DNA of 64,000 bases, from NCBI GenBank assembly GCA_050953065.1, contig JBMNLZ010000003.1, positions 128,001 through 192,000 on the forward strand, given 5' to 3'. The translations under genes were made by a program, and so were the position numbers. The notes under the pieces were generated by a model. The model did no database searches. It was not told the origin of the DNA and saw only the letters and a program-made list of their open reading frames with translations. The number at the start of each line of letters is the position of its first letter. The first letter of the stretch is position 1. This DNA comes from Bacilli bacterium. GTDB taxonomy: Bacteria > Bacillota_I > Bacilli_A > ML615J-28 > CAG-698. Positions 1 to 25,742 of the stretch are shown piece after piece.

Positions 1-1213
1 TTAATTGATAATAATCAAAAGGTAGTGCACTTACAACATTAAATGCATTATAAACATCATCTCCAAAAATCCCCATAGTCTTACAGCCACAATGTTTTAC
101 TAGTTCAATATCATGTGGAGTAATCTCACTATCATCATGAAATGAAAAACATAAATTATAACTCATTACTTCTACTTCTTCAAATCTAGCAAGTAATTCT
201 TTAAAGTTTTTCATATTTCTTATCATTTTAGGAGAATATTTAATGACAATCATTTCTTTAGTCATTTTATATTTAATCTTAGCAATATCATCAATTAAAA
301 TATTTAAAGCAATATCAAGAAGTTGTGTTAACTTTGGAGTCTTAGCAGCAACTGTAAAATAATCATCACTTGTCATAACACCCTTAATTGGATCAAATAA
401 TAAGAACTCTGTATCAACAAGTCTTACTTCTTGGTCTTGAATATGAAGAATTGGTTGATATCTAAATTCAAAAGGATAAATCGGGATATATTCAATATCA
501 TCTAAGCTTAATCCTTTTTTCTCTTTTTTAATTTGTTTTTCTTTTTTTATTTCTTTAAATTCTTTAGTAACAGCTATTTTTTCAAAATTAGCTTTTAAAA
601 TATTTAAGAATTCTTTTTCAACACTTAAAAAGAAATCAACAATTTCTCCGTCAAATTTAGCAGACTTTTCAGATACAAGTTTCTTCATTGCATATTCATG
701 TGCATCTTGATAGTTTAAGCCATCAGCTAACTTTTCTAGTGTTATGTTATCATATGAATTACTTACCGCACAAAGTCTTGCATAAAGTGGAATGTCCTCA
801 TCAGCCAACCCTCTAGGGTACCCCGACCCATCCCAAGCCTCATGATGGGCTTGCATTACAGAAACCAGCGCTACAACAAAAGGACTTGGTCTTTCTCCAG
901 CTAAGTTTTCCATTTCAACTGATGTATGATTTATTAATTGTTTTTCTTCAAACGGTGTTAATTCATCTTTTTCTAAGATATCTACATCAATTCCAATCTT
1001 CCCTAAATCATGGAATTTCATAATATCATAGACATCTTTTTCACTTAATAGTTTATCTTCACTATAAGAATCTGAATTAATCATTTGTTTATAGATATGT
1101 TTAGAATAATCAGCCACTCGTTGAGAGTGGTCTTTGACATTTTTAGGTAGCGTATCTAATAAGGGTGCAATCTCAGCAACAGTTGAGTTATATTTGATTT
1201 TTAATTCTTTCAT
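1..1213 (-). CDS. HD-GYP domain protein fused to a degenerate EAL-like domain (3'-truncated by window edge)
   Basis: Not in ORF track; translated by hand from ATG 1213, open to position 1. HD-GYP motifs DHSQRV, FHDLGK, HHEAWDGSGYPRGL, IPLYARL, KFDGEIV, then EAL-like FEFRYQPILHIQDQEVRLVDTEFLLFDPIKG. Confidence 0.85.
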   Translation of the reverse strand, partial: MKELKIKYNSTVAEIAPLLDTLPKNVKDHSQRVADYSKHIYKQMINSDSYSEDKLLSEKDVYDIMKFHDLGKIGIDVDILEKDELTPFEEKQLINHTSVEMENLAGERPSPFVVALVSVMQAHHEAWDGSGYPRGLADEDIPLYARLCAVSNSYDNITLEKLADGLNYQDAHEYAMKKLVSEKSAKFDGEIVDFFLSVEKEFLNILKANFEKIAVTKEFKEIKKEKQIKKEKKGLSLDDIEYIPIYPFEFRYQPILHIQDQEVRLVDTEFLLFDPIKGVMTSDDYFTVAAKTPKLTQLLDIALNILIDDIAKIKYKMTKEMIVIKYSPKMIRNMKNFKELLARFEEVEVMSYNLCFSFHDDSEITPHDIELVKHCGCKTMGIFGDDVYNAFNVVSALPFDYYQL

Positions 1214-1334
1214 TAAGCAAACTGGGCAAAACTGTTACTTAAGAACTAGTTTTGCACTCTCCTTTCTAAGAATGAATTGCTTACCTTTTAATATACAATT
1301 AAGGGGTAAAACAGGGTGCAGAATTCCTTATCTT

Positions 1335-1363
1335 ATTTTATCATTTTTTTTTTAAAATGTAAA
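1335..1363 (-). promoter_or_regulatory. sigma-A promoter of HD-GYP gene
   Basis: TTTACA-17bp-TAAAAT with extended TG. Confidence 0.55.
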
Positions 1364-1466
1364 GTATTTAGACCTTTTATTCTATGTTTTTTTGCTTATT
1401 TTTATGTTGTTTTCAAGTCTTTTTTAATAAAAAAAAGAAAGTTTTAAAAAAATATAAAATATGGAC

Positions 1467-1501
1467 AAAAAACTCCTAGAAATTTTATTTTCTAGGAGTT
1501 T
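1467..1501 (-). terminator. Rho-independent terminator
   Basis: AAACTCCTAGAAA/TTTCTAGGAGTTT inverted repeat followed by T run on minus strand. Confidence 0.8.
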
Positions 1502-1524
1502 GGATATCTTAAACTATAAAGTTT

Positions 1525-2391
1525 TTAAGTCCATTTATCAGCATCATCCATTGCAAAATCAAGTGATAACATAACTGTTTGTCCTAAGTTAGCATCAATT
1601 GCTTCAGCATCTGTTCCTTCTATCCACATTACAACTGATACTTTTTGAGCAGCTGCTTTAGCTGTACCAGTATTAACTTCTAAAATTTTTGTAGCTGAAG
1701 TAGAAGTATTATGTGCTATAATTCTTTTAATTTGTCCTGCTGTTGGAGTAGTAGCAATCTCACCTTTAGGTTCATTCGTTGTCGCAGCCGCTCCAGCCGA
1801 TGTAACAAATGGAATAGGTTCAGTTGCATCAGTATAAGGTGCCCAAATACCAACGATATTATTATTACTATCTAGGAAGGCAACTCTAACAGCCTTTCTT
1901 ATTGTAACATCATTTATTACAGATCCACCCGTTAAATAAACTCCTTTGTCAACACCTGCTCCAGCAACACCAGAAAATCCTGTGAAATACAAATCAAAAG
2001 TTATATACTTATGCAATTCTCCACTAATCGCAGAAAATTCAACTGGAGTTTCTTTAGTTAAATAAAAGAAAGCTTTACCATTTCCTGAAATATTTGATTT
2101 TTCTTGTTCTACAAGACCAGAAATTTTAAAAGGAGAAGATCTAAAGTCAACATTATTAACAAAATCACCATATTGTAAAGATGCAAAAGCAATAGGAGTA
2201 TTATCTCCAGGCTCTATAAGACTAGCATCTACAGCAGGATAAATTTTTAAAACACCTTTACTAGTAGCAACAATAGATGCACCTTGACCTTTAGAAGTTT
2301 CACTTAAACTAAACCACGCAAATACACCAACTACTAATAATACCATCATAACCGCAAGGAACGTATAACTAAAAATTAATTTCTTTTTCAT
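1525..2391 (-). CDS. Secreted protein with SipW-type signal peptide (TasA/camelysin-like class), paralog 2
   Basis: MKKK + hydrophobic helix ending VFAWFS; C-terminal VVMWIEGTD...LSLDF; shares motif blocks with 2569..3471. Confidence 0.65.
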   Translation of the reverse strand: MKKKLIFSYTFLAVMMVLLVVGVFAWFSLSETSKGQGASIVATSKGVLKIYPAVDASLIEPGDNTPIAFASLQYGDFVNNVDFRSSPFKISGLVEQEKSNISGNGKAFFYLTKETPVEFSAISGELHKYITFDLYFTGFSGVAGAGVDKGVYLTGGSVINDVTIRKAVRVAFLDSNNNIVGIWAPYTDATEPIPFVTSAGAAATTNEPKGEIATTPTAGQIKRIIAHNTSTSATKILEVNTGTAKAAAQKVSVVMWIEGTDAEAIDANLGQTVMLSLDFAMDDADKWT

Positions 2392-2512
2392 TTTTTTAAA
2401 TACCTTTCTATATTTTTTTAAACATTTAATCGTTCACACCAATATAATAACATATTCTTATTTATTTTACTAGTATAATTTTATTTTTTATTTTTTAAGC
2501 AATAACAATTAA

Positions 2513-2543
2513 TAGAAAACCACTGAAAAACAGTAGTTTTCTA
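2513..2543 (-). terminator. Probable terminator hairpin
   Basis: TAGAAAAC-CACTG/CAGTA-GTTTTCTA inverted repeat downstream of stop. Confidence 0.55.
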
Positions 2544-2568
2544 AAAAATCTTTCCAACTTAAATATTT

Positions 2569-3471
2569 CTAAGCTTGTGGTTGTTCCGCAAATTCAGTTA
2601 GCGTAGCAACACCAAAATTCATCTTAATGTTTGAAAGCGCTCTAAGGTTAGCATCCACAGTAGCTGCATCAGCTCCCTCAATCCAAATTCTTACAACCAT
2701 AGCTTGGCTCGTACTATGAGCAGTACCTAATACTACTGGTAATAAAGGCGTTGCTTGAATTTTACCACCATCTAAATCTCCATTTATTACTCTTAAAGTC
2801 TCATAAAGAGGAGTATCACCACTCTTTGTATAACCTAAAATTCCACTAGCACTTGGGTATGTATCAGTTGATTTAACATAATTAAGGTTACCAGCATGTG
2901 TTGCTCCAGAAACTACTGTTGCATGAGGTGCCCATATTCCAATTGTTGAAGTACCTGCTGCATTCAAAAATGCAACACGTATACCAGCAATAATTGAAGG
3001 ATCACTTGCTTCTCCAACTTTTGTAATTGCTGAGTTTCCTGTTAAATAAACTTGTTTTACAGTAGTATCAGTTTGGTCCCCATTATAACCAGTAAAATAA
3101 AGTTTAAACTGAACATAATCGTGAATTCCATCTACTCCCGCTGAATATGATGGTGAATCTCCACCAATCAATCTAAAAAACGAAGTTCCATTTCCAGAAA
3201 TATTAGTACGTTTTGCATTAGCAATCGCTGCATCAGCGAATTGTCCTGATGAGAAGTTAACATTATATTTATAATCACCAAAACCAGTAGGCTCTACAGT
3301 TTGGTTTGGTGAAACAGAGTAAACCCTCAATGTTCCTTCAGTAATAGCTTGGATTTGAGCGTTTTCAACTGTTGAAGTTGCTGTTACCGTAAACCATGCA
3401 AATGCACCCACTGCAAACAATAACAATGAAATCCCTAACATTGCATAAAGCATAACAAATTTTCTTTTCAT
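2569..3471 (-). CDS. Secreted protein with SipW-type signal peptide (TasA/camelysin-like class), paralog 1
   Basis: Signal ending AFAWFT; NISGNG, LYFTG, VYLTG, RVAFL, GIWAP, WIEG.DA...DANL blocks shared with neighbour; AAGGAG RBS. Confidence 0.65.
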   Translation of the reverse strand: MKRKFVMLYAMLGISLLLFAVGAFAWFTVTATSTVENAQIQAITEGTLRVYSVSPNQTVEPTGFGDYKYNVNFSSGQFADAAIANAKRTNISGNGTSFFRLIGGDSPSYSAGVDGIHDYVQFKLYFTGYNGDQTDTTVKQVYLTGNSAITKVGEASDPSIIAGIRVAFLNAAGTSTIGIWAPHATVVSGATHAGNLNYVKSTDTYPSASGILGYTKSGDTPLYETLRVINGDLDGGKIQATPLLPVVLGTAHSTSQAMVVRIWIEGADAATVDANLRALSNIKMNFGVATLTEFAEQPQA

Positions 3472-3635
3472 ATTTTTTCTCCTTTTTATAGATAGTTTTC
3501 TTTAAAAATAAAACTAAATTTCTTCAACCTTAGAAAAAAAATAATTAGTTTTTAAACAAAACTATTTGGTTAACTTCCTTTGTTTTCATTAAATTTCCTA
3601 TCTAACGAGAGCAAACGAGAGTTTTCCTTAACTAA

Positions 3636-3664
3636 ATTGTATCATTTATATTTTGTTATTGCAA
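3636..3664 (-). promoter_or_regulatory. sigma-A promoter of TasA-like gene
   Basis: TTGCAA-17bp-TACAAT with extended TG. Confidence 0.65.
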
Positions 3665-3707
3665 GTATTTTACATAAAAATGATTTTATTTTTATTTTTT
3701 AATAAAC

Positions 3708-3756
3708 AAAAAACACCATTTTGTTTAGTATCTTCTAAATAAAATGGTGTTTTTTT
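3708..3756 (-). terminator. Terminator of polysaccharide operon
   Basis: AAAAAACACCATTTT/AAAATGGTGTTTTTT long inverted repeat. Confidence 0.8.
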
Positions 3757-3775
3757 ATGAAATTTTTTTAATAAA

Positions 3776-4750
3776 TCATAAATTCTTCTTATACCATTCA
3801 ATTGCCTCAATTATTCCATCTTTAAAACTCCAACTAGGGTTATAACCTAACAATTTTTTTGCTTTAGAAATATCTGCATTGCTGTGTTTAATATCTCCTA
3901 CTCTTGCTTCTTTAAATATAGGTTTAATATCCTTACCTAATACTTCACATAATAAATCATAAATATCAATTAAATATTCTCTTCCGCCATAAGCGATATT
4001 AAAAGCTTCACCCGAAGTACCTTCAAAAGCATTACATGCTTTTAAATTAGCTTCAATGACATTTTCAATATAAGTAAAATCTCTACTTTGTTTGCCATCA
4101 CCATAAATTGTTGGAATTTCTCCATTTAATAATTGTTTAATGAATTTAGGAATAACTGCAGCATAATCACCATATGGATTTTGTCTTTTTCCAAAAACAT
4201 TAAAGTATCTTAACCCAATTGTTTCTAAGCCATATAACTTATAATAAAGTTTTGCATATTCTTCATTTGTTTTTTTAGTTAAAGCATAAGGAGATAAAAT
4301 ATTGCCTTCACTTCCTTCTTTTTTAGGTAAAGAGATACTATCTCCATAAACAGAAGAACTTGATGCATAAACAAACTTTTTTACTTTGTTTATTCTAGAT
4401 GCTTCTAACATATTCAATGTCCCTCTAATATTTATATCTTCATAAAGCAAGGGCATCTCAACATTTCTTGGAACGCTTCCCCAAGCAGCCTGATGCAAAA
4501 CATAATCTGCTCCTTTACAAGCATTAATACAATCTTCTAAATTTCTAATATCTTTTTCTAAAAATTCAAATTTTTTATTTTTTAAAAATGGTTTGATGTT
4601 ATTAATATTACCAGTTGATAAATCATCTAAACATCTAACATAATAACCCATTTCTAAAATTTTTTCGCATAAATTAGAACCAATAAATCCAGCTCCGCCA
4701 GTAATCAAAAAAACTGTATTCTTTGGAAAACTAATATTACTATATCCCAT
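3776..4750 (-). CDS. wbpP: UDP-GlcNAc(A) C4-epimerase, WbpP/TviC-like SDR
   Basis: [33 protein letters not shown]; start moved to ATG 4750 (GGAG RBS, TAATG coupling). Confidence 0.8.
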   Translation of the reverse strand: MGYSNISFPKNTVFLITGGAGFIGSNLCEKILEMGYYVRCLDDLSTGNINNIKPFLKNKKFEFLEKDIRNLEDCINACKGADYVLHQAAWGSVPRNVEMPLLYEDINIRGTLNMLEASRINKVKKFVYASSSSVYGDSISLPKKEGSEGNILSPYALTKKTNEEYAKLYYKLYGLETIGLRYFNVFGKRQNPYGDYAAVIPKFIKQLLNGEIPTIYGDGKQSRDFTYIENVIEANLKACNAFEGTSGEAFNIAYGGREYLIDIYDLLCEVLGKDIKPIFKEARVGDIKHSNADISKAKKLLGYNPSWSFKDGIIEAIEWYKKNL

Positions 4751-6066
4751 TAAAGTCTCCAATACTTATAATTATTTGTTTCAAAAGTATTTCTATTAAA
4801 TATACCCTTTACATCAATTAAAACTTTATTTGTTTTTCTATTATACATTTTATCTAAAGCATCAATAGATAATGCTTTAAATTCATTATGACTAACAGCA
4901 ATAACAATTGCATCCACATCTTTTATTTCTTCTTTTTCATTAAAAGAAAAACCATATTCACGTTTTGCTTCTTCTTTGTCCGCTACAGGGTCTACAATTA
5001 ATGGAGTTATACCATACTCTTTTAATTCATTAACAATATCAATCACTCTTGTATTTCTTGTATCAGGACAATTTTCTTTAAAGGTAAACCCTAGAATCGC
5101 AACTTTAGCATTTTTTACAGAAACATTAGCTTTGATTAATACTTTAATCAAATTCTCAACAATATACCTTCCCATATTATCATTTATTCTTCTACCTGAT
5201 AATATAATTTGAGAATGATAACCAACTTGTTCTGCTTTGTAAGTTAAATAATATGGGTCAACACCAATGCAGTGACCTCCAACTAAACCTGGTGAAAACT
5301 TTAAAAAATTCCACTTAGTCCCAGCCGCTTCTAACACTGCTTTTGTATCAATATTTAATCTATTAAAAATAATTGATAATTCATTCATGAAAGCAATATT
5401 AATATCTCTTTGAGAATTTTCAATTACTTTGGCAGCTTCAGCTACTTTAATAGATTCTGCCTTGTAAACTCCAGCCTCTACTACTAATTCATAAACTTTA
5501 GCAACTACATCTAGAGTTTCTAAATCCATTCCTGAAACTATTTTTATAATAGTTTCTAAACGGTGCACTTTATCTCCTGGATTTATTCTTTCAGGAGAAT
5601 ATCCCACTTTAAAATCAACCCCGCATTTTAAACCTGATTCTTTTTCAAGAATCGGAACACATACTTCTTCTGTTACACTAGGATAGACTGTTGATTCATA
5701 AACTACAATTGAACCTTTCACAAGATTTCTTCCTAAAGTTTTAGAAGCACTTTCAACTGGTCTTAAGTCAGGTGTGCGATCTTTATTAACAGGCGTAGGG
5801 ACAGCGACTATATGGAATTTAGCTTCTTTAAGCTTTTTTTCATCAGTTGTAAAATCTACTGTAGTAGATTTTATAACATCATTACCAACTTCTTTAGTTG
5901 GATCAATTCCTTTTTTATATAAAGCTATTTTTTCTTCACTAATATCAAAACCAATAACTTTTATCTTTTTACTAAAAGCAACAGCAATAGGCATACCAAC
6001 ATAACCTAAACCGATTAGCGACATGCTTTCTTTTTTTTCTATAAGTTTTTCATATAATTTATTCAT
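4750..6066 (-). CDS. wbpO: UDP-N-acetylhexosamine C6-dehydrogenase, WbpO/TviB-like
   Basis: [38 protein letters not shown]; likely start ATG 6066. Confidence 0.85.
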
Positions 6067-6088
6067 AAATCTCTCCATTTAAATTTGC

Positions 6089-7102
6089 TTATTTATAATG
6101 TTTTGCCATAAATCTTAAATATTCGCCACTTTCAATATTTTTAAGCCATTTTTGATTATCTATGTTCCATTTAATAGTTTGTTTAATCCCAGAATCAAAA
6201 TTATATTTAGGCTTCCAGCCTAAAGAGTTTTCAATTTTAGTAGCATCAATTGCATATCTTAAATCATGCCCTGGTCTATCAGTAACAAACCGAATTAAAC
6301 TTTCAGGCTTATTTAATTCTTTTAAAATTATTTTTACAACCTCAATATTGGTTTTCTCATTATGTCCACCAATATTATAAACTTCCCCTATCGCACCTTT
6401 ATGGATGATTAAATCAATTGCTGTACAATGATCATATACATGTAACCAATCTCTAACGTTTTCTCCCTTACCATAAACTGGTAAGAATTTATCTTCTAAA
6501 GCATTTTTAATCATTAAAGGAATTAACTTTTCAGGGAATTGATAAGGCCCATAATTATTAGAACATCTTGAAATAGTAATAGGCAAGCCAAAAGTTCTAT
6601 TATAAGCATGGACTAATAAATCAGCCGATGCTTTAGATGCCGAATATGGGCTTGAAGTTTGAAGTGGCGTTTTTTCAGTAAATAATAAATCTTTTCTATC
6701 AAGAGGTAAATCTCCATATACCTCATCAGTTGATACCTGATGGAATCTTTTAACGCTATACTTTAAAGAAGCATCCATCAAAACTTGCGTTCCAATGATA
6801 TTTGTCTTTAAGAAAATTTCCGGATTTTCTATTGATCTATCAACATGTGATTCAGCTGCAAAATTAATTACAACATCAAATTTTTCTTTTTCAAATAACT
6901 CAAAAACCAATTTTCTATCCGTAATATCTCCTTTAACAAATTTAAAATTAGGCTTTCCCATTATGGGTTCTAAGGTTTCTAAATTACCTGCATAAGTTAG
7001 AGCATCTAATACCAAAATGTTATAGGTAGGATATTTATCAACCATATAATGGCAAAAATTTCCGCCAATAAATCCAGCACCACCAGTTATTAATATTTTC
7101 AT
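6089..7102 (-). CDS. rmlB: dTDP-glucose 4,6-dehydratase
   Basis: [31 protein letters not shown]. Confidence 0.95.
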
Positions 7103-7983
7103 TTTAAACCCCTCTTTTTAAAATCAGTCAACGAAAGAATATATTGACCATATTCAGTCATCTTTAAACTTTTACCAATATTATAAAGTTGTTCTTCAGT
7201 TATAAATCCCCTTCTCCAAGCAATCTCTTCAATACAAGAAATATAGAAACCTTGTCTTGATTGAATAGCCTCAACATATTGAGAAGCATTTAACAAGCCA
7301 GTTGGTGTTCCTGTATCAAGCCAAGCCATTCCTCTACCTAACAAAACGACATTTAATTTATTCATTTTTAAGTATTCATTATTAACGCTAGTAATCTCAA
7401 GCTCTCCTCTTGCAGAAGGCTTAATATTTTTAACTATCTCAACAACTTTATTATCATAAAAATACAAACCAGGTACAGCATAATTAGATTTTGGATTGGC
7501 AGGTTTTTCTTCTATAGAAATCACCTTATTCGATTCATCAAATTCTACTACTCCAAATGAAGATGCATCCTTTACAGGATAGCCAAAAATAACCGCCCCA
7601 TCTTTTATTTCTTTAGCTTGATTTAATACTTTTGTTAAATCTTGTCCATAAAAAAGATTATCTCCAAGAATCAAACAAACACTATCATCCCCAATAAATG
7701 ATCTTCCTATTATGAAAGCATCAGCTAAACCTCTTGGTGTTTCTTGAATTTTATAATTAATATTTAATCCTAAAGAACTCCCATCATTAAATAGTTTTTC
7801 ATATAATGGTGTATCCTCTGGAGTTGAAATTATTAAGATATCTTTAATTCCTGCTAACATCAAAACAGAAAGCGGATAATATATTAAAGGTTTATCATAA
7901 ATAGGTAACAATTGTTTTGAAATAACTTTAGTCATTGGGTAAAGTCTTGAACCTTTACCTCCCGCTAATATAATTCCTTTCAT
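7099..7983 (-). CDS. rmlA: Glucose-1-phosphate thymidylyltransferase
   Basis: [38 protein letters not shown]. Confidence 0.95.
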
Positions 7984-7986
7984 AAT

Positions 7987-9646: not shown

Positions 9647-9680
9647 CCATCTCACCTTTTCTAAAAAAATTTTCTAATAA

Positions 9681-14491: not shown

Positions 14492-14493
14492 AA

Positions 14494-16664: not shown

Positions 16665-16681
16665 AAACTACTTCTCCCTTA

Positions 16682-17891: not shown

Positions 17892-19028
17892 TTATCTATA
17901 CTGTCTTTTTTCAATTCCTAAAAGCCTAGCTATCTTAACTGCCAAAGCAATTCTTTTAGCACTTGAAGCATAATCTTTATATGATTTGTTTTCGCCGTTC
18001 ATTAAAGTAATAAATTCATCTTTTGAAATGCCAAGTTTTAAAGCAATATATTCTAAATCTTTTAAAGCTTGCTCTTCACTATATGGAGGTTTTTTTAAGA
18101 TTTCTAAAGCATCACTTCTTTGAAGTTGATTTGTAAGAATCAAACTTGAAAAATGAGCTCTTCTTTTATCAAATCCAAATTTCTTAATTAACCAATAACC
18201 TTCATAAAATCTTGTAAAAATACTTTCATAATGTTTATTAGCATAAGGTTCCCAATTAAACTTTTCTTTTAAAGTTTTTATGGCATCCTCTTTTGTATAA
18301 GGAATTAAATCAAGCGGACGAAATACTTTCATTCCTTTAAAGAAACGATAATAAATCTTATATTTAAACATACTACATAAAGGTAGTTTTTTTAATTTTT
18401 TAGTTCCAAACCTTTTATGAATATCTTTGATTTGTTTTAAATCGTTTTGATAAACCCATTCGATAGGCTCTCTTACACACTCTGTAGAATAATTTCCACC
18501 AGTTAAAACATACTTAATTTTATGTTTAACAGCATAATTATAAAGTGATGCAAAAATTACATGATCTTGAGGAATGTCTTGATAAGGAACTTGTGATTTA
18601 AAAAAAGCAAGCTGTAAATCCTTCATTTCTTCAAAATCAACAGTTTCATGACAAATTTCTAATCCTAAGCCTTTGGCAATTTTTTCTACATTACTAATAG
18701 CTACATCTAAATTCCAACCCGTATCAACTGAATAAAGTAAGACTCTTAAGCCTAAAACTTCTTTAGCATAATATGCTAAATAAGAACTATCCACCCCACC
18801 ACTTATTCCTATAATACAATCATATTTTTTATGTCTTGTTTTTTTCTTTATTAAAGCAACTTGCTTTTCTAGTTTTGCTTTACCTACATCATCTGTACGC
18901 CAAGAAGGTAGGATATTTTCATAATAATTATGACAATGATCACACAGCCCTTTCTCATCAAATTTAATTTGTGAGTCAGTTGTATCCATTACACAATTAC
19001 TACAAACCTGATATTTTCTTTTTTCCAT
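17892..19028 (-). CDS. N-acetyl sugar amidotransferase (WbuX/WbpG family)
   Basis: N-terminal CxxC...CxxC, PP-loop SGGVDSS, KHYES, GFDKRRAH. Confidence 0.85.
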   Translation of the reverse strand: MEKRKYQVCSNCVMDTTDSQIKFDEKGLCDHCHNYYENILPSWRTDDVGKAKLEKQVALIKKKTRHKKYDCIIGISGGVDSSYLAYYAKEVLGLRVLLYSVDTGWNLDVAISNVEKIAKGLGLEICHETVDFEEMKDLQLAFFKSQVPYQDIPQDHVIFASLYNYAVKHKIKYVLTGGNYSTECVREPIEWVYQNDLKQIKDIHKRFGTKKLKKLPLCSMFKYKIYYRFFKGMKVFRPLDLIPYTKEDAIKTLKEKFNWEPYANKHYESIFTRFYEGYWLIKKFGFDKRRAHFSSLILTNQLQRSDALEILKKPPYSEEQALKDLEYIALKLGISKDEFITLMNGENKSYKDYASSAKRIALAVKIARLLGIEKRQYR

Positions 19029-20152
19029 TACTTACTCCATACAACTCTATTTACATAATCAATATAAGAAGTTATAATTCTTAATACTTTATCAGAAACA
19101 TTTGGATAACTATAATCTCTTACTGGACACAATGTATCTTTTTCTTGAGTTTCTAAAATTTCTAAACCTTGTAAAATTCGGTCTTTTTTAAGACCTACCA
19201 TCATTACACTAGCTTCTTCCATCGCTTCAGGTCTTTCATGAGCTTCTCTAATATTTAAAGCTTTAAAACCTAAGATACTAGACTCCTCACTTATAGTACC
19301 ACTATCGCTTAAAACAGCTTTAGCATTAAGTTGAAGTTTATTATAATCATTAAAACCAAGTGGTTTTAATGTTTGAATTAAAGGATTAAATCTAACATTC
19401 TTAGCTTCAATCATTTTTCTAGTTCTAGGATGTGTACTTACAATAATCGGTAATTTATAAATTTCAGCTATTTCATTTAAACTTTCAATTAAATCAATGA
19501 AATTTTTAACTGCATTAATATTTTCTTCTCTGTGAGCTGATACTACGAAATACTTATTTGGTTTTAAATTAAGACGTGTTAAAACATCACTTGCTTCAAT
19601 ATCTTTAATTCTAGAATTTAAAACTTCAAACATCGGACTACCAGTTTTGATTACTCTATCAGCAGGTAAGCCTTCACGAAGTAAATACTCTCTTGCAATA
19701 TCACTATAAGTAAGGTTAATATCAGCAATATGATCTACTATTTTACGGTTAGTTTCTTCTGGTACTCTTTGGTCAAAGCATCTATTACCTGCTTCCATAT
19801 GAAAAATTGGAATTTTTCTTCTTTTAGCAGCAATTGCACATAAACAACTATTAGTATCACCTAAGACTAAAAATGCATCTGGTTTTTCTTTTTCTATAAT
19901 TGGATCTATTTTCACTAAAATATTTCCGATTGTTTCTACAGCTGTTGTTACTGCAGCATCAAGAAAATAATCGGGTTTTTTTAATTTAAAATCCTGAAAA
20001 AAGATTTCATTTAATTCATAATCATAGTTTTGACCTGTATGAACTAAAATATGTTCAACAGCATTTGAAGATTCTAACTTTTGGATCACACAAGAAAGCC
20101 TAATTATTTCTGGGCGTGTTCCAACTACAGTCATTATTTTTATTTTTTTCAC
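19028..20152 (-). CDS. fnlC: UDP-2-acetamido-2,6-dideoxy-L-talose 2-epimerase (FnlC/CapG)
   Basis: VGTRPEIIRL, HTGQNYDYEL, EAGNRCFD..VPEE; GTG start 20152 behind GGAGG. Confidence 0.9.
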   Translation of the reverse strand: MKKIKIMTVVGTRPEIIRLSCVIQKLESSNAVEHILVHTGQNYDYELNEIFFQDFKLKKPDYFLDAAVTTAVETIGNILVKIDPIIEKEKPDAFLVLGDTNSCLCAIAAKRRKIPIFHMEAGNRCFDQRVPEETNRKIVDHIADINLTYSDIAREYLLREGLPADRVIKTGSPMFEVLNSRIKDIEASDVLTRLNLKPNKYFVVSAHREENINAVKNFIDLIESLNEIAEIYKLPIIVSTHPRTRKMIEAKNVRFNPLIQTLKPLGFNDYNKLQLNAKAVLSDSGTISEESSILGFKALNIREAHERPEAMEEASVMMVGLKKDRILQGLEILETQEKDTLCPVRDYSYPNVSDKVLRIITSYIDYVNRVVWSK

Positions 20153-20156
20153 TTTC

Positions 20157-21266
20157 TTATACCTCCAAAAAATAAGTGTCTGGATTATTAGGGTCAAAAG
20201 CTTCGCTTGCCCACATGATAGTGACTAAATCAGTCTCACCTATATTTTCAATATTATGAGTATATCCTGGCATAATATTAACAACTTCTAAAATATCTCC
20301 ACTCACATAAACTTCAATTACTTCAGTAGAATGAACTTCTCTAAACCTAATCACACCTTTACCAAAAACTACTAAAAACTTTTCACATTTAGTATGATGC
20401 CAATGGTTTCCTTTTACAATTCCAGGTTTTGAAATATTTACTGAAACCTGACCTTTATCGTCTGTTTTTAAAAACTCAGTAAAAGAACCTCTATGATCAA
20501 CATTCATTTTTAAATTATAACTAAAGCTTTCAATTGGTATAAAACTTAAGTAAGTAGCATAAAGTTTTCTAACAAAATCATTTTTCATATCAGGAACAAA
20601 TAAATCAAACTTTTCAGCTTTAAAAGAATAAATTGTTTTAGTTAGTTCTTCTAAAGTAACTTTATAAGATGTCTTTACTTTACAAAATTCATTATCTTTT
20701 GTAGGATTCCCCTCTAATGCACTAATTAATTCTTTTACAACATCATCAATATAAACTAAATTAACTACTGCATTAGGATCACTTACCATAATCTCTAAGC
20801 CTCTTGAAATATTATAACAAAATGTCGCAACAGCACTATTGTAATTTGGTCTTGACCATTTTCCAAAAATATTTTGGAATCTATACACTAAAACTTCCAC
20901 CTTGTTTTCTCTACCATATTCAAATACTAAATCCTCACCTGCTTTTTTACTTTTTCCATAAGGATTATCAAGAGCAGCTTGGATTGATGAAGATATCATC
21001 AATGGGGCTTTATTATTATATTTTTTAAGTAAGTTAAGTAAAGTATTAGTAAATCCAAAATTACCTTCCATAAATTCGCTTTGTTCTTTTGGACGATTTA
21101 CTCCTGCAAGATGAAAAATAAAGCCAGCTTCTTTACACGCTTTTTCTAAATCTTCTATTTTAGAATCAATATCATATTCAAAAATATCTTCATATTTTCT
21201 AGCTCTTAATTCAGCAATTAAATTTTTACCGACAAAGCCTTTTGCTCCTGTTACTAAAATCTTCAT
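20157..21266 (-). CDS. fnlB: UDP-2-acetamido-2,6-dideoxy-hexulose reductase with cupin domain (FnlB/CapF)
   Basis: HLAGVNRP, NPYGKSK, RPNYNS, KGNHWHHTK. Confidence 0.9.
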   Translation of the reverse strand: MKILVTGAKGFVGKNLIAELRARKYEDIFEYDIDSKIEDLEKACKEAGFIFHLAGVNRPKEQSEFMEGNFGFTNTLLNLLKKYNNKAPLMISSSIQAALDNPYGKSKKAGEDLVFEYGRENKVEVLVYRFQNIFGKWSRPNYNSAVATFCYNISRGLEIMVSDPNAVVNLVYIDDVVKELISALEGNPTKDNEFCKVKTSYKVTLEELTKTIYSFKAEKFDLFVPDMKNDFVRKLYATYLSFIPIESFSYNLKMNVDHRGSFTEFLKTDDKGQVSVNISKPGIVKGNHWHHTKCEKFLVVFGKGVIRFREVHSTEVIEVYVSGDILEVVNIMPGYTHNIENIGETDLVTIMWASEAFDPNNPDTYFLEV

Positions 21267-22273
21267 TCTTTTTTTCCTAATTCTTCTTTTATATAATCTA
21301 ATTTCAATAATTTTTCTTTTATTTCTTCAATATTTAATATCTTTGTATTATGCGAATTATATTCATCCCCCTCAGATAACTCGCTACATCCTTCAACAAA
21401 ATATTTATCATAGTTTAAATCTCTTTTATCAGCTGGTACTCTATAGTAATCTCCTAAATCAAGGGCTACAACTTTTTCTTCTTTAGTAAGCAGTGTTTCA
21501 TAAAGTTTTTCACCATGTCTTGTACCAATGATTTTTATCTTAGAGTTAGAATTAAACAATTCCTTAACAGCTTGTGCTAAATCACCAATTGTTGAAGCTG
21601 GTGATTTTTGAACCATAATATCACCTGCTTGAGCATTTTTAAAAGCAAAAATAACCAATTCTACTGCTTCATCTAAACTCATAAGAAATCTTGTCATATT
21701 GGGGTTTGTTACTGTTAAAGGGGCTTTATTTCTAATTTGGTCAACAAATAAAGGAATTACAGAACCGCGTGAAGCCATAACGTTACCATATCTTGTTCCA
21801 CAAATTACAGTATCAGTCACTGTTTTTGATTTAGCAACAAAAACTTTTTCCATCATTGCTTTTGAAATTCCCATTGCATTAATCGGATAAGCTGCTTTAT
21901 CAGTAGACAAACAGATAACTTTCTTAACTTTAGCATCAATTGCTGCTGTTAAAACATTATCAGTTCCTATTACATTAGTTTTTACAGCTTCTAGTGGAAA
22001 AAACTCGCAAGATGGTACCTGTTTTAAAGCTGCAGCATGAAAAACATAATCAACATTATACATTGCATTTTTAATACTTGAAAGATCTCTAACATCACCT
22101 ATATAGAATTTAAGTTTATCTGATTTATAAAACTTTCTCATATCATCTTGTTTTTTCTCATCACGAGAAAAAATCCTAATCTCTTTGATATCAGTATTTA
22201 AAAATCTTTTCATGACTGCATTTCCAAAAGAACCAGTTCCACCTGTAATTAATAATATCTTATCTTTAAACAT
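21263..22273 (-). CDS. fnlA: UDP-GlcNAc 4,6-dehydratase/5-epimerase (FnlA/CapE)
   Basis: GGTGSFG, KQVPSCEFFP, STDKAAYPINAMG, DLNYDKY. Confidence 0.92.
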   Translation of the reverse strand: MFKDKILLITGGTGSFGNAVMKRFLNTDIKEIRIFSRDEKKQDDMRKFYKSDKLKFYIGDVRDLSSIKNAMYNVDYVFHAAALKQVPSCEFFPLEAVKTNVIGTDNVLTAAIDAKVKKVICLSTDKAAYPINAMGISKAMMEKVFVAKSKTVTDTVICGTRYGNVMASRGSVIPLFVDQIRNKAPLTVTNPNMTRFLMSLDEAVELVIFAFKNAQAGDIMVQKSPASTIGDLAQAVKELFNSNSKIKIIGTRHGEKLYETLLTKEEKVVALDLGDYYRVPADKRDLNYDKYFVEGCSELSEGDEYNSHNTKILNIEEIKEKLLKLDYIKEELGKKE

Positions 22274-22306: not shown

Positions 22307-23611
22307 TTATTCTTCATCAATTTTTTTTATTCTTTGTTTTGCAACAATTGCGACCTTTTCTTTTACTTCAGGTTTTCCTAAAGTCCCTTTTTCTAAGCCA
22401 TCAAATATCTTATCCATTCTATCTAATAATTTAATTTTATCAAATTTTTCTTTTCCGTAATTTAAAGCATTATTCTTTATAACCACTCTTTGGGCAGGGT
22501 ATAATTGGACAAATTCTTCAATTGCATCAGCTAATTCTAAAACATTCCCTGGAGCCCCACAAAAACCAATTTGGCCTTCATCAATAATCTTTTTAACTTC
22601 ACCCTTAGCACTAGCAATAACAGGTAATCCACAGGCAAGATATGATTGAAGTTTTGCAGGAATTGTTTTTTCTAAAATCGGACTATCATTAAAAGTAATT
22701 AATCCAGCATCACAATATGCAAAATAATATGGGATTTCAGTTGCTGGTATTGGATCGATAAAGTTAAAGTATGGTTCTACGATAAAATCTTGAACCTTTT
22801 TAACTAAGTTTGCTTTTTCTTTACCATCTCCAATTATATTAAATCTTACTTTAATTCTTCTTCTTTCTAATTCAATCGCACAACGTGGTAAAACCTCTAA
22901 CCCTTGAGCCTTACCAATATTTCCAGCAAACACAAGATTTACTCTTGAGTCTTGAGGAATAACAGTAATTGCTTTAGCAGATTTTTCTAAAGGTTTATAA
23001 AACTCCTCAGCATATTGTGGCCAAAACTCTAACTTAATTTCAGGAACTTTAAACTTCTTAATTATTGAATCAATAAAAGATTTCGAAGAAGTTAAAATAT
23101 AATCAGTATTTTTATAAATCTTTTTAACAGTTCTTGTAACACTTCTAATAATACATTTATTATTAATATTTCCAGCCGCAATTAAATTATCTGGCCATAA
23201 ATCCATTACATATAAAACGCTTGGAATCTTTCTTCTTTTGGCATACCAAATACCAATTTTAGCTTGATAGATTGGTGAAACTTCATAAGTAAAAACATAA
23301 TCTGCTTTTAATTTAGTAAACTTAGCAAAAAACCAGCCGAAGAAAACAAAAGATTTATAGTTTAAATATAAACTAAAGGGATTTTTTCTTCTTGCAAAAA
23401 GAGGAATTCTAATAACATTAACTCCGTTAATGTTTTCTTTTCTTTTTCTAAACCAGCCATATCCTTTATAAAATTTCCCTTCAGGATAATTTGGAATTCC
23501 AGTAACAACAGTTACTTTATATCCCTTTTTTACCCACTCCTCACAAATATCATTAATTCTAAATTGTTCAGGATAATAATATTGTGAAACAACTAAAATA
23601 TGTTTACTCAT
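22307..23611 (-). CDS. GT4 glycosyltransferase, WbuB/WciJ-like L-FucNAc transferase
   Basis: SQYYYPE, PNYPEG, DLWP, FAGNIGKAQGL, TIPAKLQSY; adjacent to fnlABC. Confidence 0.8.
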   Translation of the reverse strand: MSKHILVVSQYYYPEQFRINDICEEWVKKGYKVTVVTGIPNYPEGKFYKGYGWFRKRKENINGVNVIRIPLFARRKNPFSLYLNYKSFVFFGWFFAKFTKLKADYVFTYEVSPIYQAKIGIWYAKRRKIPSVLYVMDLWPDNLIAAGNINNKCIIRSVTRTVKKIYKNTDYILTSSKSFIDSIIKKFKVPEIKLEFWPQYAEEFYKPLEKSAKAITVIPQDSRVNLVFAGNIGKAQGLEVLPRCAIELERRRIKVRFNIIGDGKEKANLVKKVQDFIVEPYFNFIDPIPATEIPYYFAYCDAGLITFNDSPILEKTIPAKLQSYLACGLPVIASAKGEVKKIIDEGQIGFCGAPGNVLELADAIEEFVQLYPAQRVVIKNNALNYGKEKFDKIKLLDRMDKIFDGLEKGTLGKPEVKEKVAIVAKQRIKKIDEE

Positions 23612-23623
23612 GATTTTTCCCCC

Positions 23624-24484
23624 TTAAAGTGATTTTTTAATTGAATCTTCAAAGCTAATTACATTGTATTTAAAATCAAAATGATTCGAAACATTTAAAT
23701 CATATGTCTTATTTCCAAAAACTTGATTTATTATAGGTAAGATATAAGAACCTATTACTAACATCCAATTAAAGATTTTTGTTTCTCTATATTTTTTATC
23801 GTTTTCTTTTCTAACAAGTCTTACTAAATCTTTAATAGCAACATAATTCTTATTTTGCGGATAAAAAACTCCACTAGATTCATTATCAATTAATAGTTTT
23901 ACAAACTCACATAAATTATCAATATGAATCATACTTTTTTGATTTTTAATATTCAAGAAAAAAGGAAACTTTAAAGCAAATTTTACCAATCTTGGGAAAT
24001 TCCCCTTACACCCCTTACCATAAACTACAGGAGTTCTAATAATATTTACTTTGAAATTATCACTTTCTAATTTTTGAATTTCAAGATCAGCTTCTAATTT
24101 TGACTTCCCATATGCATTAAGTGGAGCATATTTTTCTACATCAATATGATTGTATTTTCTAACTTTATTATCTTTTCCATAAATTATCATACTACTCATA
24201 AAAATGAATTGCTTGACATTTTCATCCTTAGCTTTTTTAGCAACCTCAATTGCTAAATCTCTATTCACCTTAAAATATAACGGTGCCATCTTTTTTTTGC
24301 TTGAAACATGAGCAATTCCTGCAACATGATAAACTACATCATAGCCAGAAAAACTATAATTTTTCCATGTTTCATCCATCATATCTAAAGTATTGATTAT
24401 ATATTTATCTTCATTTTTTTTAAGCCATGATTCCACATGAGTACCAATAAAACTCCCCTTACCCGTGATTAATATTTTCTTCAT
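23624..24484 (-). CDS. NAD-dependent epimerase/reductase (CapN/WbpV-like SDR)
   Basis: ILITG..SFIG, HVAGIAH, YGKSK, KGNF. Confidence 0.8.
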   Translation of the reverse strand: MKKILITGKGSFIGTHVESWLKKNEDKYIINTLDMMDETWKNYSFSGYDVVYHVAGIAHVSSKKKMAPLYFKVNRDLAIEVAKKAKDENVKQFIFMSSMIIYGKDNKVRKYNHIDVEKYAPLNAYGKSKLEADLEIQKLESDNFKVNIIRTPVVYGKGCKGNFPRLVKFALKFPFFLNIKNQKSMIHIDNLCEFVKLLIDNESSGVFYPQNKNYVAIKDLVRLVRKENDKKYRETKIFNWMLVIGSYILPIINQVFGNKTYDLNVSNHFDFKYNVISFEDSIKKSL

Positions 24485-24485
24485 G

Positions 24486-25079
24486 CTATTTTCCCTCTTT
24501 TACTCCATCACTTTTTAAAACACTAAAAATAGTTTTAAAAAATATTTTTATATCAAAGAAAAGACTTTGACGCCTAACATACTCACCATCTAAAGCCGCT
24601 TTTTCTGGAATTGGCAATTCATCACGACCATTTATTTGAGCCCAACCAGTTAAACCTGGTCTTAAGCTATTAACACCATATTTATCTCGTTCTTCAACTA
24701 AATCATCTTGATTCCAAAGAGCAGGACGTGGTCCTACTATACTCATCTTTCCAAACAAGATATTAAAAATTTGAGGAAGTTCATCAAGCGATGTTTTTCT
24801 TAAAAATTTTCCAATTTTAGTAATATATTGTTCAGGATTTTCTAACATATGAGTTGGCGTATCGTGTGGTGTGTCAATTCTCATAGTTCTAAATTTATAT
24901 ATTTTAAAAATCTTTTTATTTTTTCCAATTCGTTTTTGTTTAAAAAGAATTGGCCCCCTTGATGTTAGTTTAATAATTAACCCCAAAATTATAAAAACTG
25001 GTAATAAAATTATAAGTCCAATTAAAGATATAAAAAAATCTAAAACATATTTTATAAATCTATACATTTTCCCCTTCAC
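24486..25079 (-). CDS. Initiating polyprenyl-phosphate sugar-1-phosphate transferase (small PGT)
   Basis: KFRTM, LRKTSLDELPQ, GPRP, PGLTGWAQINGR; alternative start ATG 25067. Confidence 0.92.
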   Translation of the reverse strand: MKGKMYRFIKYVLDFFISLIGLIILLPVFIILGLIIKLTSRGPILFKQKRIGKNKKIFKIYKFRTMRIDTPHDTPTHMLENPEQYITKIGKFLRKTSLDELPQIFNILFGKMSIVGPRPALWNQDDLVEERDKYGVNSLRPGLTGWAQINGRDELPIPEKAALDGEYVRRQSLFFDIKIFFKTIFSVLKSDGVKEGK

Positions 25080-25088
25080 CCTATCTTT

Positions 25089-25709
25089 TTATTCAAAAAA
25101 TTTTACTATTTTTTCAGAATTATAACCAATCCCTTTTAAAGAATTGATTATTTTTTCACGATGAACATAACTTGAAACAACAATTGCATCATGATTATAC
25201 TTTTTTAGTTCATCTTTACTAATGATTGGAACATTAACCATAACCCTACCTTGTTTTTCCTTGTCATCATCAATAACACCAACAACTTTTAAAGGCACGT
25301 TATTATCACTAACAATTACTTGAAGCATAATCTCAGCTACTTCTCCTGCTCCGTAAAATAAGACTTTAGTAATTCCTTTTTCTATAATTTGGTTTAAAAA
25401 GTTCGTTACATCTTCTTTTGCTTTTTTAAAAATATTTAAAGTATCTTTTAAAAACCAAATATTTAAAAGACGTTTTCTTTCAACACCTTTTTTGGTTAAA
25501 ACATAATTAACATTTTTTAAATTGTAATATTCCCTTATAACAAAACCATACTTTTCACATTCTTCTAAGTATTGATTTACCATTGATACAGAAATATCTA
25601 AGTCCTCACTAATCATTCTTTGAGTGATTGACTCGTTTTGTGAAATCATTTCTAGAATCCTGTATTCTTTATAGATTGGTGTTGGTTTAAAAAAGTTAAT
25701 TTCTGCCAT
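25089..25709 (-). CDS. EPS-associated winged-helix (MarR-like) regulator with C-terminal Rossmann-like domain
   Basis: ITQR.IS..L.IS.SMVN.YL HTH, YVLTKKG wing; FYGAGEVAE and VIDDD nucleotide-binding-type motifs. Confidence 0.75.
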   Translation of the reverse strand: MAEINFFKPTPIYKEYRILEMISQNESITQRMISEDLDISVSMVNQYLEECEKYGFVIREYYNLKNVNYVLTKKGVERKRLLNIWFLKDTLNIFKKAKEDVTNFLNQIIEKGITKVLFYGAGEVAEIMLQVIVSDNNVPLKVVGVIDDDKEKQGRVMVNVPIISKDELKKYNHDAIVVSSYVHREKIINSLKGIGYNSEKIVKFFE

Positions 25710-25719
25710 TTTTACTCCT

Positions 25720-25742
25720 AATTGTTCGATAACCGAACAATT
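25720..25742. promoter_or_regulatory. Palindromic operator at polysaccharide-operon transcription start
   Basis: AATTGTTCG-ATAAC-CGAACAATT perfect 9-bp inverted repeat between -10 box and RBS. Confidence 0.65.

Follow-up and report, generated by a model that had tools for sequence, protein, structure and literature searches.

The DNA considered here, referred to as the window, is a stretch of 64,000 nucleotides (G000:C3:128001-192000) from a Bacilli genome, G000, which comprises 1.55 Mb in three contigs and is 94% complete. We consider it likely that window positions 1-3471 form the promoter-proximal end of a 31.5-kb surface-fibre or adhesin locus of the CoCoPALM type (G000:C3:100007-131471), in which secreted proteins with an Ala-Trp-Phe (AWF) leader are encoded together with two SipW-type signal peptidases, a membrane-anchored McrB-like GTPase with an McrC-like partner, and a protein of cyclic di-GMP (c-di-GMP) signalling. 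The locus is continuous on the minus strand and reaches 28 kb beyond the window's left edge; its core, the membrane McrB-like GTPase and its McrC-like partner, lies left of the window and was therefore outside the view of an earlier, sequence-only reading of positions 1-25742. That reading, which had proposed a clustered biofilm-matrix system of polysaccharide, TasA/CalY-type fibres and a c-di-GMP gene, is partly supported: SipW, the diguanylate cyclases, the c-di-GMP linkage and a wall-less lineage hold.

The CoCoPALM class was named in a single paragraph of Bell et al. (2024, eLife, PMC11090510), where it stands uncharacterised and its analysis is postponed; in the supplement of that article it is represented by two HHpred rows, with a weak FtsB match (E 1.2). 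As in that description, the GTPase studied here is an McrB-like protein with an NxD motif, an N-terminal transmembrane (TM) segment and a charged helical region (a coiled coil in CoCoPALM's own case), it adjoins a DUF2357 McrC homologue with a charged helical tail, and its neighbours include members of the signal-peptidase family. The two descriptions differ in that Bell et al. liken the peptidases to the inactive pilin-assembly factor SipA, whereas those found here are SipW-type and retain Ser and His, and in that the McrC-like protein here is unusually short. The passages of Bell et al. on these loci do not mention the AWF family, the TM variant, the giant cargo, c-di-GMP elements or wall-less hosts; the figure supplements may show more of the gene neighbourhood. 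Our literature search found the name CoCoPALM only in this article and its preprint.

Gene content of the probable fibre locus

The genes of the locus are listed below in 5' to 3' order, all on the minus strand. L007 is the left-flank stretch of G000 that carries the locus; the left flank was read in two steps, 20 kb and then another 20 kb.

Window 2569-3471, minus: P0002, AWF-leader family paralog, 300 amino acids (aa)
Window 1525-2391, minus: P0001, AWF-leader family paralog, 288 aa
C3:127747-129213, minus: HD-GYP/degenerate-EAL gene, 488 codons, of which window 2-1213 holds the N-terminal 404
Next, minus: TM-anchored family variant, 263 aa, with a basic N-terminus, a TM segment and no AWF motif
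Next, minus: three further AWF paralogs, 406, 393 and 284 aa, two of them ending in a Listeria-Bacteroides repeat
C3:122538-123338, minus: SipW-long, 266 aa (TIGR02228 38.9 bits, below cut-off; profile match C3:122790-123281)
L007:12898-14415, minus: McrB-like AAA GTPase, 505 aa, one TM segment at residues 55-73
L007:11637-12878, minus: McrC-like DUF2357 protein, 413 aa (PF09823 36.7 bits, cut-off 23.3), with a K/E-rich C-terminal tail
C3:119054-119611, minus: SipW-short, 185 aa (TIGR02228 70.1 bits, cut-off 51.85; profile match C3:119114-119587)
Next, minus: three giant proteins, 1467, 2495 and 2364 aa, with AWF-, SWF- or AWY-type leaders

The sequence-only reading had seen no sipW and suspected one beyond the left edge, where we indeed found two genes for SipW-type peptidases, of the archaeal/ER class of signal peptidase I, 5-9 kb left of the window. 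Neither copy reaches the 190-bit cut-off of the Bacillus SipW equivalog (NF046067 family; 75.5 bits for the short and 34.1 bits for the long copy). The SM and HR motifs are invariant in all 12 aligned SipW-type peptidases, the catalytic roles of the Ser and His residues being those described for SipW. In the GTPase encoded between the two peptidases, Walker A (GISGTGKTS), Walker B (ILDEMN) and the N-x-D-D motif are conserved in seven of seven aligned McrB-like proteins; its profile matches are weak (McrB NF008457, E 1.5e-4, and AAA_5), and a charged, heptad-like helical stretch can be read by eye after the TM segment. The McrC-like protein, whose DUF2357 corresponds to the N-terminal domain of McrC, is missing its C-terminal part, and the next gene begins 26 nucleotides (nt) past its stop. 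In a partial read of 2210 residues of the 2495-aa giant, the one giant scanned, we counted eight Flg_new (Listeria-Bacteroides repeat) stretches. The start of the TM variant overlaps the stop of the HD-GYP/EAL gene by 20 nt, the gaps between the minus-strand genes from the TM variant onwards showed no terminator-like site, and glycine-cleavage and lipoate genes come after the giant-protein genes.

P0001 and P0002 are 36% identical, and the N-terminal hydrophobic segment of each ends in A-W-F; neither matches a Pfam or NCBIfam family. A local profile detected seven family paralogs in G000, six of them within the fibre locus. The seventh (G000:C3:486200-487393; L037:10200-11393) lies off the locus and combines a lipoprotein-type leader with a Big_2 domain, without an AWF leader. 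A word-index homologue search with P0002 returned six proteins only, and it was an exhaustive profile search that gave the full family: a profile of the paralogs and a few close homologues matched 2121 cluster representatives at E<=1e-3 among 1.84 billion proteins, and 122 at E<=1e-10, most members being full-length at about 260-330 aa. Across 85 aligned members the W of the leader is invariant, and its A and F are nearly so. The possibility that these are class III (type IV pilin-like) leaders was rejected, as there is no short polar prepeptide ahead of the hydrophobic stretch and a weak Arch_flagellin match occurs in only two of the 85 members.

An AlphaFold2 model of P0001 built on the 85-sequence alignment (predicted local distance difference test 89.9, predicted template-modelling score 0.84) consists of an N-terminal helix followed by a beta-sandwich, and supersedes an earlier, poor model from 10 sequences (56.2 by the former measure). 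In an exhaustive structural alignment the top match was the TasA fibre 8aur_A (Z 6.6, root-mean-square deviation 3.6 A, 140 residues), and the top 13 included donor-strand filament subunits, namely those of the Hyper2 tube, cannulae, Pyrobaculum bundling pili, the Natrinema Tafi pilus and the Sulfolobus 0406 filament; a second structural search, again headed by the TasA fibre, gave FimA pilins at Z 6.1-6.3 and monomeric TasA (5of1_A) at Z 5.5. A sequence-profile search of the PDB with the AWF family yielded a single meaningless match (E 0.3), and a three-copy complex prediction of mature P0001 scored 0.00 in a run without controls, which counts neither way. With its leader and first strand, the AWF profile aligns to a Peptidase_M73-matching protein of the corresponding locus in the relative G004 (hhalign probability 93%), so that the leader class appears to be shared with true members of the TasA/camelysin family. 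The G004 protein (L035:4618-5247, 209 aa, Peptidase_M73 27.5 bits, cut-off 22.5) is encoded between two SipW genes; because it sits in that locus, true TasA/camelysin members co-occur with the AWF family.

Conservation of the locus and its c-di-GMP elements

The AWF family was found in 10 of 24 same-family genomes and in none of 16 sister-family genomes. L041, a metagenome contig of a close relative of G000, has exactly the G000 gene order, with the GTPase 90% identical, the HD-GYP/EAL protein 87% identical in the same position, and the AWF proteins 52-77% identical (73% for the P0002 orthologue). Four same-family relatives from four genera (G003, G004, G023 and G024) share the order TM variant, three to four AWF genes, SipW-long, GTPase (E ~1e-140), DUF2357 and small proteins, with SipW-short copies among the last. 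Three of these four also encode a giant protein of 2238 to 3209 aa, while G024 instead has a 789-aa Flg_new protein between SipW-long and the AWF genes. The same core occurs in two Clostridia contigs from metagenome-assembled genomes (MAGs) and in one Oscillospiraceae contig (together L009, L010 and L014), and in all seven of these loci signal-peptidase genes likewise lie by the GTPase/DUF2357 pair. G007 was too fragmented for a judgement of synteny, and a related-locus search with a 10-row alignment returned distant loci only. The G000 GTPase is 61% identical to the Clostridia and Oscillospiraceae copies as against 42-43% to copies from its own family (L028, L030, L032), which could mean that the locus arrived by horizontal transfer or that there are two coexisting subtypes.

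In the HD-GYP/EAL protein, whose two domains the sequence-only reading had recognised, HD_5 scores 51-52.7 bits (cut-off 27.2), the HD and HHExxDGxGYP motifs are readable, and the HD-GYP phosphodiesterase domain is apparently intact. The EAL match (PF00563) is weak in the window fragment and reaches 53.6 bits (cut-off 31.3) for the full length of 488 aa. Canonical EAL domains use Glu/Asn/Glu/Asp/Lys/Glu/Gln at their catalytic positions; the relatives' canonical domains keep these, whereas here all but the first Glu are replaced, and the C-terminal half is best read as a non-catalytic EAL-fold domain. In having lost its catalytic positions it resembles receptor-type EAL domains such as those of LapD and FimX, which are degenerate-EAL c-di-GMP receptors. 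No TM segment is predicted, so that the protein is taken to be cytoplasmic. It holds the sole EAL domain of G000, in which the one other HD-GYP domain is fused to GGDEF, and a search of the genome for GGDEF domains gave two matches over cut-off and one weak one. Together with three riboswitches, the c-di-GMP network of G000 has two cyclases, a pair of HD-GYP domains and a single, dead EAL domain. The fusion of HD-GYP with EAL is uncommon, occurring in three of the 120 best-listed hits out of 969, namely the query, its L041 orthologue and a 79%-identical protein.

c-di-GMP-I riboswitches (GEMM-I, RF01051) control adhesin and pilus genes of Firmicutes. The three found in G000 (C3:233069-235332, 55-58 bits, gathering score 35) lie about 40 kb right of the window, in a region (C3:232072-235332, L038-L040) with five small genes, every riboswitch standing ahead of one or two of them. 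Their products (110-207 aa) have AY[FW]D-type SipW-class leaders, and Pfam gave nothing for these five, nor for three small proteins of the relatives' loci. Every c-di-GMP output found in G000 therefore points at SipW-class exported proteins.

In the relatives, as in other RF01051-controlled adhesin genes, aptamers stand directly upstream of the first fibre gene. G003, G023 and G004, three of the four same-family relatives, have RF01051 matches above the gathering threshold immediately before the TM-variant gene, as a tandem pair in G003, and additional aptamers lie inside the G003 and G023 loci. In G003 and G023 the TM variant is closely preceded by a GGDEF-EAL gene, which in G024 stands at a distance of about 1.4 kb. 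G024 has additional GGDEF and GGDEF-EAL genes downstream of the locus, and in G004 a GGDEF-EAL gene follows the giant protein. L014 has a stand-alone EAL gene upstream of the TM variant, and L010 a sub-threshold EAL-like gene at the head of the locus. c-di-GMP elements therefore lie beside the core in all eight loci with upstream sequence (G003, G004, G023, G024, L010, L014, L041 and G000); L009, which begins at the TM variant, was left out of this count. What sets G000 apart from the relatives that carry the riboswitch is the cytoplasmic HD-GYP/degenerate-EAL fusion in the riboswitch's place. SipW, diguanylate cyclases and a conserved linkage, without which the sequence-only reading would have given up its proposal, are all present, and AWF genes, SipW genes and c-di-GMP elements occur together in the relatives as it had anticipated. 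Our literature search found no link of SipW-type loci or CoCoPALM to c-di-GMP; judged by titles and abstract openings, publications naming SipW, c-di-GMP and riboswitches concern Bacillus or C. perfringens, and in PMC7395162 the terms occur in the reference list only.

The window end of the locus carries the following signals.

3636-3664, minus: promoter-like site of P0002, TTGCAA, 17 nt, TG-TACAAT; both hexamer regions kept in L041
3472-3635, minus: structured 5' leader of P0002, minimum free energy -35.2 kcal/mol, z -3.23
2513-2543, minus: terminator between P0002 and P0001, 13 pairs, loop of 5
1467-1498, minus: terminator after P0001, 10-bp stem, 6-nt loop, T6
1335-1363, minus: promoter-like site of the HD-GYP/EAL gene, TTTACA, 17 nt, TG-extended TAAAAT; kept in L041
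1214-1269, minus: 56-nt leader element with a Shine-Dalgarno-like AAAGGAGAG and then a hairpin, ending at an ATG without a nearby Shine-Dalgarno sequence

None of 200 shuffled sequences folded as well as the P0002 leader, which shows 78% column identity with L041 and has no match in Rfam. The promoter at 1335-1363 probably also serves the genes downstream of HD-GYP/EAL. The terminators that the sequence-only reading had placed between the blocks were recovered, that at 2543-2513 by a consensus terminator scan and those at 1498-1467 and 3751-3704 by direct reading; the former of these two is conserved in L041 and absent from the scan list. The 56-nt element has hardly changed between G000 and L041, whereas the 60 nt upstream of it vary; its hairpin is seen in the centroid fold, and the z-score of the whole leader is only -0.76. 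AAAGGAGAG and the hairpin stand 42 nt upstream of the HD-GYP/EAL ATG, and a three-codon mini-ORF (open reading frame), GTG CAA AAC TAG, can be read after AAAGGAGAG.

A model of fibre assembly and its alternatives

Penicillin-binding-protein transpeptidase and FtsW/RodA genes were not found in G000, 94% complete as it is, and the only Mur-ligase-domain match stands alone. Because the first two are missing, we take the host to be wall-less. This agrees with the sequence-only reading in part: it had called the lineage possibly Acholeplasmatales-like, which is near, but an assignment to that order was not confirmed. The best taxonomic pointer is the sole named near homologue among the 120 best-listed of 969 matches to the HD-GYP/EAL protein (79% identical), whose MAG bears the label Candidatus Izemoplasmatales. 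For P0001, the closest Atlas cluster is most common in Mycoplasmatota. G000 reads TGA as a stop codon, which ends 104 of 799 long ORFs. c-di-GMP signalling was previously noted at genome level in the wall-less relative Acholeplasma laidlawii (Galperin 2008, PMC2408644). Our literature search found no publication combining SipW with Acholeplasma, and among the best-ranked matches none in which the term Izemoplasma occurs together with c-di-GMP or signal peptidase.

The following model starts from what is observed, namely the gene content, family memberships, motifs, synteny, the relatives' riboswitches and the missing wall genes. The subunits would enter the membrane via their N-terminal hydrophobic leader and would be cut by the two SipW-type Ser/His peptidases, the predicted site being the invariant A|W-F. 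The freed beta-sandwich subunits would then assemble into a polymer, the probable mechanism being the donor-strand exchange of TasA and BsaA, and the uncleaved TM variant may act as the membrane anchor on which the polymer grows, a role that would matter in a wall-less host; the giant proteins would be adhesive cargo. From the cytoplasmic side, the GTPase/McrC-like pair may provide energy or a checkpoint. Finally, c-di-GMP would set the level, in the relatives via the riboswitches before the first fibre gene and in G000 via the HD-GYP/dead-EAL protein, whose dead EAL may sense c-di-GMP by binding it.

Known systems resemble parts of this arrangement. The tapA-sipW-tasA operon of Bacillus and the sipW-tasA-calY operon of B. 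cereus likewise have a dedicated SipW-type peptidase beside secreted beta-sandwich substrates and an accessory or anchor protein in the operon, and the TasA fibre is the best structural match of P0001. As in A-W-F, the leader class of TasA is marked by Phe and an aromatic residue where the leader is cut. However, the locus described here has two peptidases and six paralogs without Peptidase_M73 homology, it shows no SinR/SinI-type control, and its products have no wall to pass or to be anchored to; the Bacillus operons, in turn, lack the GTPase/McrC-like pair. The sipW-bsaA-bsaB-bsaC operon of C. perfringens was reportedly described by Obana et al. in 2020. It, too, combines SipW with TasA-like paralogs in one operon, and the number of paralogs suggests heteropolymers (PMC11580942, a preprint from the Melville laboratory). 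The BsaA polymer is reported to be locked by isopeptide bonds via an N-E-K triad and to be anchored via the cytoplasmic membrane, which is the role that the TM variant would fill here, and the passages of that article on the operon mention neither an McrBC-like pair nor a c-di-GMP element (PMC11580942).

A number of observations weigh against a fibre locus of this kind. The locus is known from its sequence, with expression, cleavage and fibres as predictions. The sequence-only reading had taken the AWF proteins for TasA/CalY-type subunits, which was not borne out at sequence level: none of the 85 family members matches Peptidase_M73 (PF12389), and the leader model TIGR04088 matches five of the 85 weakly (best E 0.0032) and neither P0001 nor P0002 (E<=0.01). 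Foldseek returned no match in the PDB at E<=1e-3, and a Z of 6.6 falls inside the range that, according to the tool's own note, is reached by models without a true relative. Because the score is middling and the Foldseek search came out empty, the TasA-like fold is suggestive only, and a resemblance to pilins or TasA is the most that can be claimed for the modelled AWF fold. No AWF family member is present in G001, the one genome of the same genus, at 86% completeness. Nor is the linkage universal, since in five Bacilli MAG loci (L008, L011, L012, L013 and L015) the fetched flanks show the TM variant and three to four AWF genes without SipW, GTPase or DUF2357; no EAL or GGDEF domain was found among the ORFs scanned from L008, L011, L013 and L015, L012 being nearly the same as L011. 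Moreover, the counts overstate independence, since many loci in the comparison belong to genomes that are related to each other. The McrC-like protein has 413 aa here as against 626-819 aa in seven relatives. RF01051 is absent from the fibre locus of G000 (window and L007 at the gathering score, leaders at E<=5) and was not found in the loci of G024, L009, L010 and L014.

Some of these points would equally fit AWF proteins that are SipW-processed or membrane-retained monomers, forming a variable surface coat or serving as adhesins on a wall-less cell, with the GTPase pair engaged in quality control or turnover. A lack of TasA sequence homology and a middling fold score would be expected of such proteins, they diverge faster from L041 than does the GTPase (52-77% versus 90% identity), as antigenically variable proteins do, and the seventh paralog is a lipoprotein-type Big_2 fusion. 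Yet donor-strand filament subunits are over-represented among the best structural matches, and several paralogs together with an uncleavable TM variant in a fixed first position resemble the major, minor and anchor pilins of pilus sets, so that we give the monomeric alternative a minor, though real, share of credence. Far less credible, and in our view highly improbable, is that the McrB-like/McrC-like pair is an anti-phage restriction module resident by chance in a surface-protein island. The family does descend from McrBC, the GTPase has a partial AAA-domain match to the candidate defence model PDC-M26A of PADLOC (E 1.7e-34), and variable islands often house defence genes. However, the pair is fixed between two SipW genes in four genera of the family and in the Clostridia contigs, the GTPase is the best-conserved gene of the locus and carries a TM anchor where McrB has its DNA reader, and its partner shows no nuclease domain here or in four relatives and no PADLOC match in any of four McrC-like proteins scanned. 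In addition, G000 has a second, longer McrB-like/DUF2357 pair elsewhere (C3:465097-469357, ORFs of about 895 and 528 aa), which is presumably an ordinary restriction-type McrBC.

The proposal of the sequence-only reading itself was a single biofilm matrix, in which the polysaccharide operon next to P0002 (window 3776-25709), the fibres and the c-di-GMP gene would be co-selected and co-regulated in the manner of Bacillus eps and tapA-sipW-tasA. The blocks are indeed adjacent and co-oriented, in L041, too, a glycan operon, the AWF genes and the HD-GYP/EAL gene lie side by side, and matrix polysaccharides are commonly under c-di-GMP control. Against this, terminators and separate promoters divide the blocks, the operon has a regulator and a candidate operator of its own, and the family scan saw neither PilZ nor another c-di-GMP receptor in it. 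In the four family-level relatives and in eight more distant loci, about 20 kb around the locus were free of any polysaccharide cluster, and the glycan genes of L041 differ, as in a variable serotype-like locus. After this comparison a single matrix unit appears unlikely to us, though glycan operon and fibres may act together in one matrix. We prefer to regard 3776-25709 as probably a separate, terminator-bounded operon for a Wzx/Wzy-dependent heteropolysaccharide, an independent neighbour of the fibre locus.

Within the fibre-locus reading, a bolder version can be put forward as a speculation that we doubt more than we believe: nearly the entire small c-di-GMP network of G000 would serve to switch a GTP-driven, McrBC-derived assembly of SipW-cut fibres on the bare membrane, with the dead EAL as a sensor that acts post-translationally on the GTPase or the peptidases and so replaces the riboswitch. 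If true, c-di-GMP would for the first time be tied through an effector to a motor derived from a restriction enzyme. To our knowledge, CoCoPALM loci are widespread in Firmicutes-type bacteria and have never been studied, and they raise the question of why a restriction-enzyme GTPase sits between two signal peptidases. The present analysis names a likely cargo, the un-annotated AWF-leader beta-sandwich family of 2121 cluster representatives, with one TM member in a fixed first position. The tie to c-di-GMP could be used to switch the system in experiments and suggests a sessile or adhesive role, and a wall-less host with a minimal c-di-GMP network would allow membrane anchoring of fibres to be studied without peptidoglycan.

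The polysaccharide operon and the remainder of the window

All family-matching ORFs from position 1 to about 57 kb lie on the minus strand (ORFs of at least 80 aa in window 1-25742), in agreement with the co-oriented block of polysaccharide operon, two AWF paralogs and HD-GYP/EAL gene described by the sequence-only reading. Its estimate of about 22 kb for the operon was also accurate: its 21 genes take up 21.9 kb, no gap between them exceeds 66 nt, and a terminator of hairpin and T-run lies at either end.

25771-25799, minus: terminator of the upstream DUF4143 ATPase gene, 13-nt arms, 100% complementary, then a T-run
25719-25743: perfect 10-nt inverted repeat with 5-nt spacer, between a TATAAT-like box and the ribosome-binding site of the regulator gene
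25089-25709, minus: winged helix-turn-helix (wHTH) and Rossmann-like protein, first gene of the operon (HTH_24 36.9 bits)
22307-25079, minus: WcaI-like GT4, 286-aa short-chain dehydrogenase/reductase and small monotopic Bac_transf phosphoglycosyl transferase
17892-22273, minus: WbuX-type N-acetyl-sugar amidotransferase and FnlC/FnlB/FnlA-like enzymes
14494-17878, minus: GT4, GalE (TIGR01179 412 bits), GT4
13298-14491, minus: Wzy-like polymerase candidate, 10 hydrophobic segments (weak EpaQ match, 20.7 bits, cut-off 100)
12301-13311, minus: soluble 336-aa protein without a family match, with a DxD-like EDD motif
10724-12295, minus: Wzx-type flippase, 12 hydrophobic segments (Polysacc_synt 38.3 bits, cut-off 28.2)
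9681-10739, minus: GT2 glycosyltransferase
6089-9655, minus: RmlB, RmlA, DegT-type aminotransferase and hexapeptide acetyltransferase, the dTDP-(acetamido)-dideoxyhexose branch
3776-6078, minus: TviC-like epimerase and TviB-like UDP-GlcNAc 6-dehydrogenase (TIGR03026 393 bits, over cut-off)
3704-3751, minus: operon terminator, 11-bp stem, 18-nt loop, T-run; missed by the scan because it accepts only loops of 3-8 nt

The initiating transferase (Bac_transf 213 bits) has one TM segment. The operon is predicted to provide sugars of the FucNAc, amino-dideoxyhexose and GalNAcA types. The TviC/TviB-like pair is predicted to make UDP-GalNAcA. The genes at 17892-22273 (TIGR03573 274 bits, cut-off 203, for the WbuX-type enzyme; Polysacc_synt_2 347 bits, Polysacc_synt_C and Epimerase_2 for the Fnl-like ones) are presumably a UDP-L-FucNAc branch, possibly leading to the acetamidino form, in line with the FnlABC/CapEFG pathway. 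The EDD motif suggests that the 336-aa protein is a GT-A glycosyltransferase. The family scan saw no chain-length regulator, tyrosine kinase, LCP protein or WaaL-type ligase in the operon. No HisH/HisF-like partner genes lie beside the WbuX-type amidotransferase gene (17892-19028), and the his operon (43916-51630) includes HisF and HisA, with no HisH ORF of at least 80 aa between its genes.

The sequence-only reading had called the operon self-regulated. A wHTH/Rossmann gene and a perfect inverted repeat do stand at its head, and the protein, which has weak similarity to MarR_EPS (36.9 bits, cut-off 88) and to the N-terminus of NeuD, is a candidate operon regulator; the repeat is a candidate auto-operator, to which the regulator may bind.

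Counterparts of the 21 operon proteins were found neither in the four family-level relatives (40 kb each) nor in the eight distant loci, apart from one marginal PP-loop match and one 2-epimerase match. In L041 (L041:2-9640) a glycan operon likewise abuts the AWF genes and has other content, with GT4s 32-33% and Wzx 25% identical and five ORFs unmatched. This gene replacement, the low-GC centre of the operon (25%), its own regulator and its terminators fit a variable, serotype-like glycan locus at a fixed site and are at odds with a part of the fibre system. O-antigen and capsule loci are similar in carrying Bac_transf, Wzx, Wzy-like, GT4/GT2 and nucleotide-sugar genes in one operon, in their low-GC centre, and in content replaced at the same site, as in L041; those of S. 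aureus cap5/8, E. coli O145 and the Vi antigen we take to be Wzx/Wzy loci with FnlABC/CapEFG-, WbuX- and TviBC-type genes. They differ in that the present host has neither peptidoglycan nor an outer membrane to receive the polymer, and in the wHTH-Rossmann gene at the head, and the fate of a Wzx/Wzy glycan in a wall-less cell is itself a puzzle.

The other features of the window are consistent with the sequence-only reading as far as it had noted them, a GH114 hydrolase and luxS lying outside the block.

42437-43246: GH114 hydrolase
58129-58641: luxS

Two large proteins with GHL10 domains are encoded at 29862-34627, and a T-box leader (122.8 bits) precedes methionine genes at 57811-58056. DNA runs containing the window stretch come from anaerobic digesters, bioreactors and sludge, and seven metatranscriptome runs contain 38-53% of the words sampled from window 1-4200, a figure that applies to this stretch as a whole and not to single genes.

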